A stretch of DNA of 40,255 bases from a virus (Duplodnaviria > Heunggongvirae > Uroviricota > Caudoviricetes), in the IMG/VR virus record IMGVR_UViG_2874951433_000007, positions 1 through 40,255 of that record. The stretch is one strand, 5' to 3'. The notes beneath the pieces are model-generated. The model saw only the letters and a program-made list of their open reading frames with translations, was not told the origin of the DNA and did not search any database. Of the stretch, positions 21,557 to 22,336 are shown in pieces. The position numbers and the translations under genes are program-made. Position 1 is the first letter of the stretch. Every line of letters begins with the position of its first letter.

Positions 21557-22029
21557 ACCTCAATCTCTCTGACCGTTCCGCCAGCCTCTTTGAATTTTGC
21601 AATCAGGCTGTCAGCCTTATGCTCGAACTGACCATAACCAGCGCCCGGCAGTGAAGCCCAGATATTGCTGCAACGGTCAATTGCCTGACGAATATCACCA
21701 CGATCAATCATCGGCAAAGCGCCACGCTCCTTAATCTGCTGCAATGCCACAGCGTCCTGGCTTTTCGGAGAGAAGTCTTTCAGGCCAAGCTGCTTACGAT
21801 AGGCATCCCACCAACGGGAAAGAAGCTGGTAACGTCCGGCGGCTGTTGATTTGAGTTTTGGGTTTAGCGTGACAAGTTTGCGAGGGTGATCGGAGTAATC
21901 AGTGAATAGCTCTCCGCCAACAATGACGTCATAACCATGATTTCTGGTTTTCTGACGTCCGTTATCAGTTCCCTCTGACCACGCCAGCATATCGAGGAAC
22001 GCCTTACGTTGATTATTGATTTCCACCAT
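21553..22029 (-). CDS. R: Endolysin R (lytic transglycosylase)
   Basis: 158 aa, matches recalled lambda R ([39 protein letters not shown]...). Confidence 0.9.
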
Positions 22030-22336
22030 CTTCTACTCCGGCTTTTTTAGCAGCGAAGCGTTTGATAAGCGAACCAATCGAGTCAGTACCGATGTAGCCG
22101 ATGAACACGCTCGTTATATAAGCGAGATTGCTACTTAGTCCGGCGAAGTCGAGAAGGTCACGAATGAACTAGGCGATAATGGCGCACATCGTTGCGTCGA
22201 TTACTGTTTTTGTAAACGCACCGCCATTATATCTGCCGCGAAGGTACGCCATTGCAAACGCAAGGATTGCCCCGATGCCTTGTTCCTTTGCCGCGAGAAT
22301 GGCGGCTAACAGGTCATGTTTTTCTGGCATCTTCAT
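22013..22336 (-). pseudogene. S: Holin S (lambda S107/S105 dual-start) with in-frame amber codon at codon 56
   Basis: Translation [112 protein letters not shown] at 22169..22171 where lambda has Trp. Confidence 0.85.

Follow-up and report, generated by a model that had tools for sequence, protein, structure and literature searches.

The window analysed here is the whole of a 40,255-nucleotide (nt) stretch of a Caudoviricetes virus (IMG/VR record IMGVR_UViG_2874951433_000007), identical to part of chromosome CP026799.1 of Shigella flexneri NCTC 9728 (GCA_002950335.1), a reference strain of serotype 5a/5b (PMC9455713). It holds a P22/Sf6-like prophage, integrated at attλ and carrying the gtrABC genes, whose lambda-type holin gene S is interrupted by an amber codon. 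The base change is the same as in the laboratory lambda allele Sam7. In all likelihood, a spontaneous TGG>TAG mutation inactivated S of this prophage in NCTC 9728, independently of Sam7.

The S gene lies on the minus strand, where its translation runs ...CAIIA*FIRDLL...EDGGNQ* with the TAG as the sole internal stop. The plus-strand reading of the same interval gives a meaningless translation and was discarded. Relative to lambda (NC_001416), 320 of the 324 nt are identical, and the product matches PF05106. The four differences comprise two synonymous changes (L10 at lambda position 45215 and F78 at 45419), the substitution R105G (45498) and the TGG>TAG change at W56. In the base-by-base comparison, the last of these replaces G by A at the counterpart of lambda 45352, and all 34 aligned close relatives retain the wild-type base at this position (window 22170). 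The stop is not a chance stop, since 141 natural homologues outside this genome are all intact with TGG at codon 56. The dual start Met1-Lys2-Met3, serving S107 antiholin and S105 holin, is present as ATG AAG ATG at 22336..22328. Full-length homology, the dual start and the position at the head of an S-R-Rz/Rz1 cassette downstream of Q are those of a lambda-family class I holin, and the frame for the three transmembrane helices is broken at codon 56. S is here a pseudogene of such a holin. The genome's own annotation calls no product across S, consistent with this assignment. A preliminary description of this DNA, which did not name the strand, had recognised a lambda-type holin whose frame is intact on both sides of a single TAG replacing the Trp of codon 56; minus-strand translation and alignment bear out both points.

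Lambda DNA is sold commercially as cI857 ind1 Sam7, and nanopore sequencing uses as its control strand a 3.6-kb amplicon from the lambda right end. Sam7 is an amber mutation in S that blocks lysis in non-suppressing hosts while virions are still assembled (PMC12318184, PMC3359269). A literature search for an explicit statement that Sam7 is W56 or lies at 45352 found none, and the position was settled from public laboratory-lambda sequences. The comparison sources were a control-amplicon 'plasmid', a New England Biolabs (NEB) strain, a lambda lysogen and contaminant contigs, all with A at 45352 and otherwise pure lambda. Clean sequences of this kind differ from the reference lambda S at one base only, 45352 G>A, and therefore Sam7 is W56 TAG, in agreement with the preliminary description. 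A few noisy lambda contigs with the Sam7 base carry extra indel errors. The window S has the same base change as Sam7. The two alleles agree in gene family, codon, base change and 55-residue product, and the same suppressible, lysis-null phenotype would be expected of the window allele. They differ in haplotype, with three further changes in the window S, and in genomic setting, the window allele residing in a P22-like Shigella prophage, which points to an independent origin.

The haplotype around the amber is that of wild E. coli prophages. Over the 1,221 base pairs (bp) of S-R-Rz homology (lambda 45015-46235), the window shows 70 mismatches to lambda, and the closest non-lambda markers are 137 bp from the amber on its upstream side and 67 bp on its downstream side. 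At 45215, 45419, 45498, 45546, 45603, 45618, 45680, 45690 and further sites, the window has the alleles of wild E. coli prophages. At the first five of these, lambda has G/T/A/G/A, whereas the window and natural prophages have A/C/G/A/T. All genuine Sam7 sources, in contrast, carry lambda alleles at every variable site across S-R. For a 551-bp window segment, the best E. coli matches differ by one base, the amber itself, and have an intact annotated holin. The natural allele concerned, WP_000783734.1, belongs to E. coli prophages with cassettes of the HK97/HK022/mEp/Sf101 type, which have the same S-R-Rz order downstream of Q and an intact S in 141 of 141 copies examined. The R protein is likewise an extremely common natural allele that differs from lambda R. 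Because non-lambda markers flank the amber, any lambda-derived tract would need a length below 204 bp and could bring in only the amber base. As a source, laboratory lambda DNA was set aside: the G>A at 45352 is present, and the flanking lambda alleles and the lambda genome context are missing. The comparison of flanking single-nucleotide polymorphisms (SNPs) proposed in the preliminary description thus yields natural alleles, and its suggestion of laboratory-derived lambda DNA finds no support, the amber standing on a non-lambda haplotype within a P22/Sf6-like S. flexneri prophage. Judged by these flanking alleles, the S amber is taken to have arisen independently of laboratory Sam7. A W56 amber alone is no proof of laboratory lambda, and haplotyping of the flanking SNPs separates natural from laboratory alleles within a few hundred bases.

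The window's native-haplotype S amber is unique among all data searched. Outside this genome, 159 S-like genes were gathered; 141 are intact with TGG and the other 18 are all lambda control or laboratory derived. About 60 natural S loci reached through protein look-ups are all intact. A TAG-centred 41-mer has matches in 8 of 5,426 complete E. coli genomes, namely two NEB laboratory strains, two control-amplicon 'plasmids' and four environmental chromosomes. The two TAG matches among IMG/VR viral contigs are both control amplicons. A metagenome scan for TAG on the native haplotype returned 0 contigs, as against 85 for the same pattern with TGG, used as positive control. An exact-protein look-up of the 31-amino-acid (aa) open reading frame (ORF) after the amber found no record. 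The same look-up showed broad occurrence in E. coli for R, Rha, Rz, NinH, a 50-aa ORF after Rz, ANT and an antisense ORF of 60 aa from the Q-S spacer. Recurrence of the W56 amber could be masked by purifying selection on active phages.

The coincidence with Sam7 follows from the small mutational target in S. In an intact S, 31 single-base changes lead to a stop, and just four of them are transitions (Q19, W56>TAG, W56>TGA and Q107, the last codon). All four are G:C>A:T changes, the dominant class in this lineage, and W56 is the sole Trp codon of the gene. Without any hotspot, about one third of the effective transition-type nonsense mutations in S would recreate Sam7. In addition, W56 is overlapped by the only CC[A/T]GG site of S, at S nt 164-168 across codons 55-56; of the first 57 copies inspected, the 40 with an intact S all have CCTGG there. 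On the complementary strand, the partner of the changed G is the inner C of CCAGG, the methylated one, which matches the signature of 5-methylcytosine deamination. Amber sites in lacI (Coulondre et al. 1978) are said to lie at Dcm hotspots. Dcm sites are classic G:C>A:T amber hotspots of E. coli (PMC12606429, which reviews that study). As in lacI, the amber codon came from a G:C>A:T change of the inner CCWGG cytosine; unlike lacI, the window S records a single event, and Dcm methylation of this host is presumed. The chance that deamination at the Dcm site produced the W56 amber is about even. The overlap of W56 with the Dcm site offers an explanation for the same allele in laboratory and nature.

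A second nonsense codon lies in terL, the Sf6-type large terminase gene, where W295 is changed from TGG to TGA outside any Dcm context; Sf101 and ten other relatives have TGG. The truncated 294-aa product occurs in only three blocks, namely this genome, a DRR016007 contig and an ERR316953 contig. The DRR016007 short-read contig (SRA/Logan; 7,484 bp, common to six samples) is identical to the window, terL opal included, so the assembly is accurate over that stretch. The ERR316953 contig shares the opal and diverges in the coat gene: from about position 5394, set against window ~13190..14560, its coat-region product has 438 aa versus 417 aa. This divergence suggests recombination, or a difference of frame, after the terminase was already broken. 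Since the terL lesion is found in independent short-read assemblies, it is real and inherited.

Against relatives covering about 15.4-27.8 kb of the window, a stop-codon scan showed just two real coding frames broken by an in-frame stop each, those of S and terL. At least five relatives cover 9.8 kb, and 25 lineage-specific substitutions were tallied there: 15 synonymous, 6 nonsynonymous, 2 nonsense and 2 noncoding, with 14 of the 25 being G:C>A:T. Of the six nonsynonymous calls, the one in a small ORF near DUF2560 depends on a guessed reading frame and is unreliable. The pattern fits a phage under purifying selection until recently, followed by two knock-outs. R, Rz, Q and the scanned prophage-end ORFs, integrase included, are intact. 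Decay mediated by insertion sequences (IS) was set aside, as the ORFs scanned at the prophage ends contain no transposase domains or IS elements. With a gene for virion production (terL) and a gene for virion release (S) both inactivated, the prophage is defective, and the terL codon common to independent assemblies sustains the idea of a naturally decaying prophage put forward in the preliminary description. It resembles other defective, gtr-retaining prophages of Shigella and E. coli in that att, integrase, immunity and gtr are intact and packaging and lysis are knocked out. Defective Shigella prophages typically carry IS insertions or deletions, whereas this one carries two point nonsense mutations. 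The S amber is an ordinary pseudogene of a known kind, a case of ordinary prophage decay, and in other records the NCBI pipeline marks this lesion with 'internal stop'.

In the mechanism proposed here, a spontaneous G:C>A:T transition would have struck the sole Trp codon of S. The 55-residue product is predicted to stop short of the end of transmembrane helix 2 and to miss helix 3 and the C-terminal domain altogether. Membrane holes would not form, the intact R and Rz/Rz1 would stay trapped, and induction would not lead to lysis unless an amber suppressor were present. If it behaves like Sam7, the allele is expected to be a recessive null with loss of lysis. The terL opal would in turn abolish DNA packaging. 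The prophage would then neither package nor lyse, while gtr, immunity and integration functions would remain. Either selection (host protection, retention of serotype conversion) or drift may have fixed the lesions.

Several points weigh against a spontaneous, Dcm-linked inactivation of S. The S amber itself is seen in one assembly only, CP026799.1. The suppressor tRNA content and the Dcm status of the host cannot be read from the window, dcm and vsr lying outside it. The Dcm attribution rests on one event, and the probability that one of 14 GC>AT changes falls by chance on one of 22 methylated target bases is ~0.06. The 141 loci, the metagenome scan, IMG/VR and the 5,426 E. coli genomes showed no independent recurrence of W56 TAG on the native haplotype, although a very strong hotspot might have given some.

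A stronger version of the spontaneous origin holds that the amber is a selected 'grounding' of the prophage. The S. flexneri serotype-5 lineage would have fixed the amber together with the terL opal, keeping gtr without the risk of lysis; the amber would be Dcm-driven, and Sam7 would have arisen by the same route. This version is unlikely. In lambda-family S genes the sole Trp codon coincides with the sole Dcm site; if the version were true, this overlap would allow Dcm+ hosts to reach a lysis-null prophage in one step, at a high rate that depends on methylation.

More doubtful still is the explanation that the TAG is a single-base consensus error in CP026799.1, for instance because a methylated Dcm site was miscalled, whether or not a minority of control-DNA reads helped to tip this position. 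The site is indeed a Dcm motif, no second assembly covering S was found, and no other natural copy has the allele. A look-up of the sequencing method behind CP026799 gave no result. The other ten Dcm sites in the relative-covered region, however, are unchanged and 40 CCWGG sites are left in the window, which argues against systematic miscalling at such sites. No frameshifts were noticed, and the compared ORFs are equal in length to the counterparts in relatives. The 7,484-bp neighbouring stretch matches a short-read contig down to the other nonsense codon, and the genome annotation without a product across S also speaks against an error. A spontaneous mutation accounts for the TAG far better.

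It is very improbable that the amber is functional, with lysis gated by a suppressor tRNA of the host or of a co-resident element, or by read-through, so that lysis becomes conditional. Amber codons are suppressible, and Sam7 is used in this way in the laboratory. The window contains no tRNA gene, however, and the terL opal is beyond the reach of an amber suppressor, so that there would be no packaged particles to release. The allele is also absent from all other natural copies examined.

Equally hard to credit is an import of the amber from laboratory lambda cI857 Sam7, by recombination or by control-DNA contamination of the assembly; the base change is shared and Sam7 control DNA is a pervasive contaminant that overwrote S-R in four E. 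coli RefSeq chromosomes, but such artefacts turn the whole block from 45042 to ~46213-46235 lambda-identical, and the window keeps its mismatches there and its non-lambda alleles on both sides of the amber. Overwriting of the window by the nanopore control amplicon was rejected on the same grounds, there being no lambda-identical block from 45042.

The index of public assemblies lists the 55-aa Sam7 product in over 7,000 blocks. The blocks that were read show ~3.5-kb pieces of lambda S-R-Rz-bor within unrelated contigs, which indicates widespread control-DNA contamination or chimeras in public assemblies. Such pieces were seen in OY731402.1 (a 57-Mb chromosome), JGI 3300049043 and 3300049821, and ENA ERZ1286166. 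Among the genomes matching the TAG 41-mer, the E. coli 'plasmid' pL1PEag1 (NZ_CP145514.1, 3,561 bp) is lambda 45042-48488 with Sam7 and adaptor-like poly-T, and NZ_CP139847.1 (3,472 bp) is probably of the same kind. The NEB laboratory strains are C3029 and C3026. Sam7 is frequently cited as part of the DE3 prophage genotype; the name BL21(DE3) does not occur among the eight genomes, and the presence of DE3 in the collection was not looked up.

The four remaining genomes are RefSeq chromosomes with an 'internal stop' holin: PM06121 (NZ_CM129866.1), A3 (NZ_CP195960.1), F5 (NZ_CP195955.1) and C1 (NZ_CP195942.1). Aligned base by base, PM06121, A3 and F5 keep native sequence as far as lambda 45041; from 45042-45044 to ~46211-46235 they match lambda Sam7, and this block spans from the 5' end of the amplicon to the point where local homology stops. 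In C1, the S haplotype is that of lambda Sam7 and the R protein that of lambda. In all four, the lambda block lies within an otherwise native P22-like prophage. Natural recurrence of the amber in these environmental chromosomes is ruled out by the lambda Sam7 haplotype and, in the three aligned base by base, by the block start at the amplicon 5' end; the block looks like an overwrite during assembly or polishing. Sam7 control DNA thus corrupts S-R in at least four RefSeq E. coli chromosomes and creates false holin pseudogenes there, which is the most useful by-product of this analysis.

Table 1 Coordinates of the prophage features in the window.
Feature	Position	Strand	Remarks
Lambda att core, ACTTTTTTATACTAA	91..105	minus	one mismatch; one prophage end
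O-antigen modification module gtrABC	552..3106	plus	
gtrA	552..914	plus	
gtrB	911..1828	plus	
Third gtr gene	1841..3106	plus	421 aa; no Pfam hit; gtrC position
Large terminase gene terL (Sf6 type, PF04466)	17646..19061	minus	471 codons; one opal interruption
Opal codon, terL W295 TGG>TGA	18177..18179	minus	TGG in Sf101 and 10 other relatives
Spanin gene Rz (PF03245)	21098..21556	minus	152 aa; intact
Rz1-like reading frame	within 21151..21381		embedded in Rz
Endolysin gene R	21553..22029	minus	158 aa; intact; start overlaps S 3' end
Holin gene S (lambda family, PF05106)	22013..22336	minus	107 codons; now a pseudogene
Amber codon 56 (S107 numbering), TGG>TAG	22169..22171	minus	mutated base is window 22170, lambda 45352
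Former Dcm site	22169..22173		ancestral CCTGG, now CCTAG; only CC[A/T]GG in S
Late-gene antiterminator gene Q (PF03589)	22771..23394	minus	207 aa; intact; 434 bp upstream of S
Lambda-type integrase gene	37767..38837	plus	356 aa; arm-binding domain; apparently intact
Lambda att core, GCTTTTTTATACTAA	38911..38925	minus	exact; other prophage end; adjoins host pectinesterase-like (ybhC-type) gene

The two att cores enclose 38.8 kb and place the integration at attλ (Table 1). The third gtr gene is taken, from its position, as a putative serotype-specific glucosyltransferase gene, and the module is likely to be host-beneficial cargo. The gtr genes are followed by a P22-type tailspike gene and then by ejection, head and terminase genes of the Sf6/Sf101 type. 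The remaining content includes the Q-S-R-Rz late region, nin-region genes, a DnaB-like helicase, CII, a CI-like repressor and RecT. Homology to lambda ends at lambda 46235. Downstream of Rz, the window has Rha, DUF2560 and Sf6-type terminase genes, whereas lambda has bor, a DUF1398 gene, Nu1/A and others. The element is a mosaic prophage of the P22/Sf6/Sf101/HK620 kind, other than lambda.

The layout at 91..38925 is chimeric: the integrase is of lambda type and the integration site is attλ, the virion genes are of P22/Sf6 type, and the gtrABC module accompanies them. The SLT-domain ejection protein (5357..7750, minus strand) has 797 aa, compared with 911 aa in Sf101. A cluster of 11-bp direct repeats (TGGACAACCGT / TGGACAACTGT) is found at 28144..28250, inside a 296-aa replication-initiator ORF (27734..28624, minus strand), and these repeats look like origin iterons.
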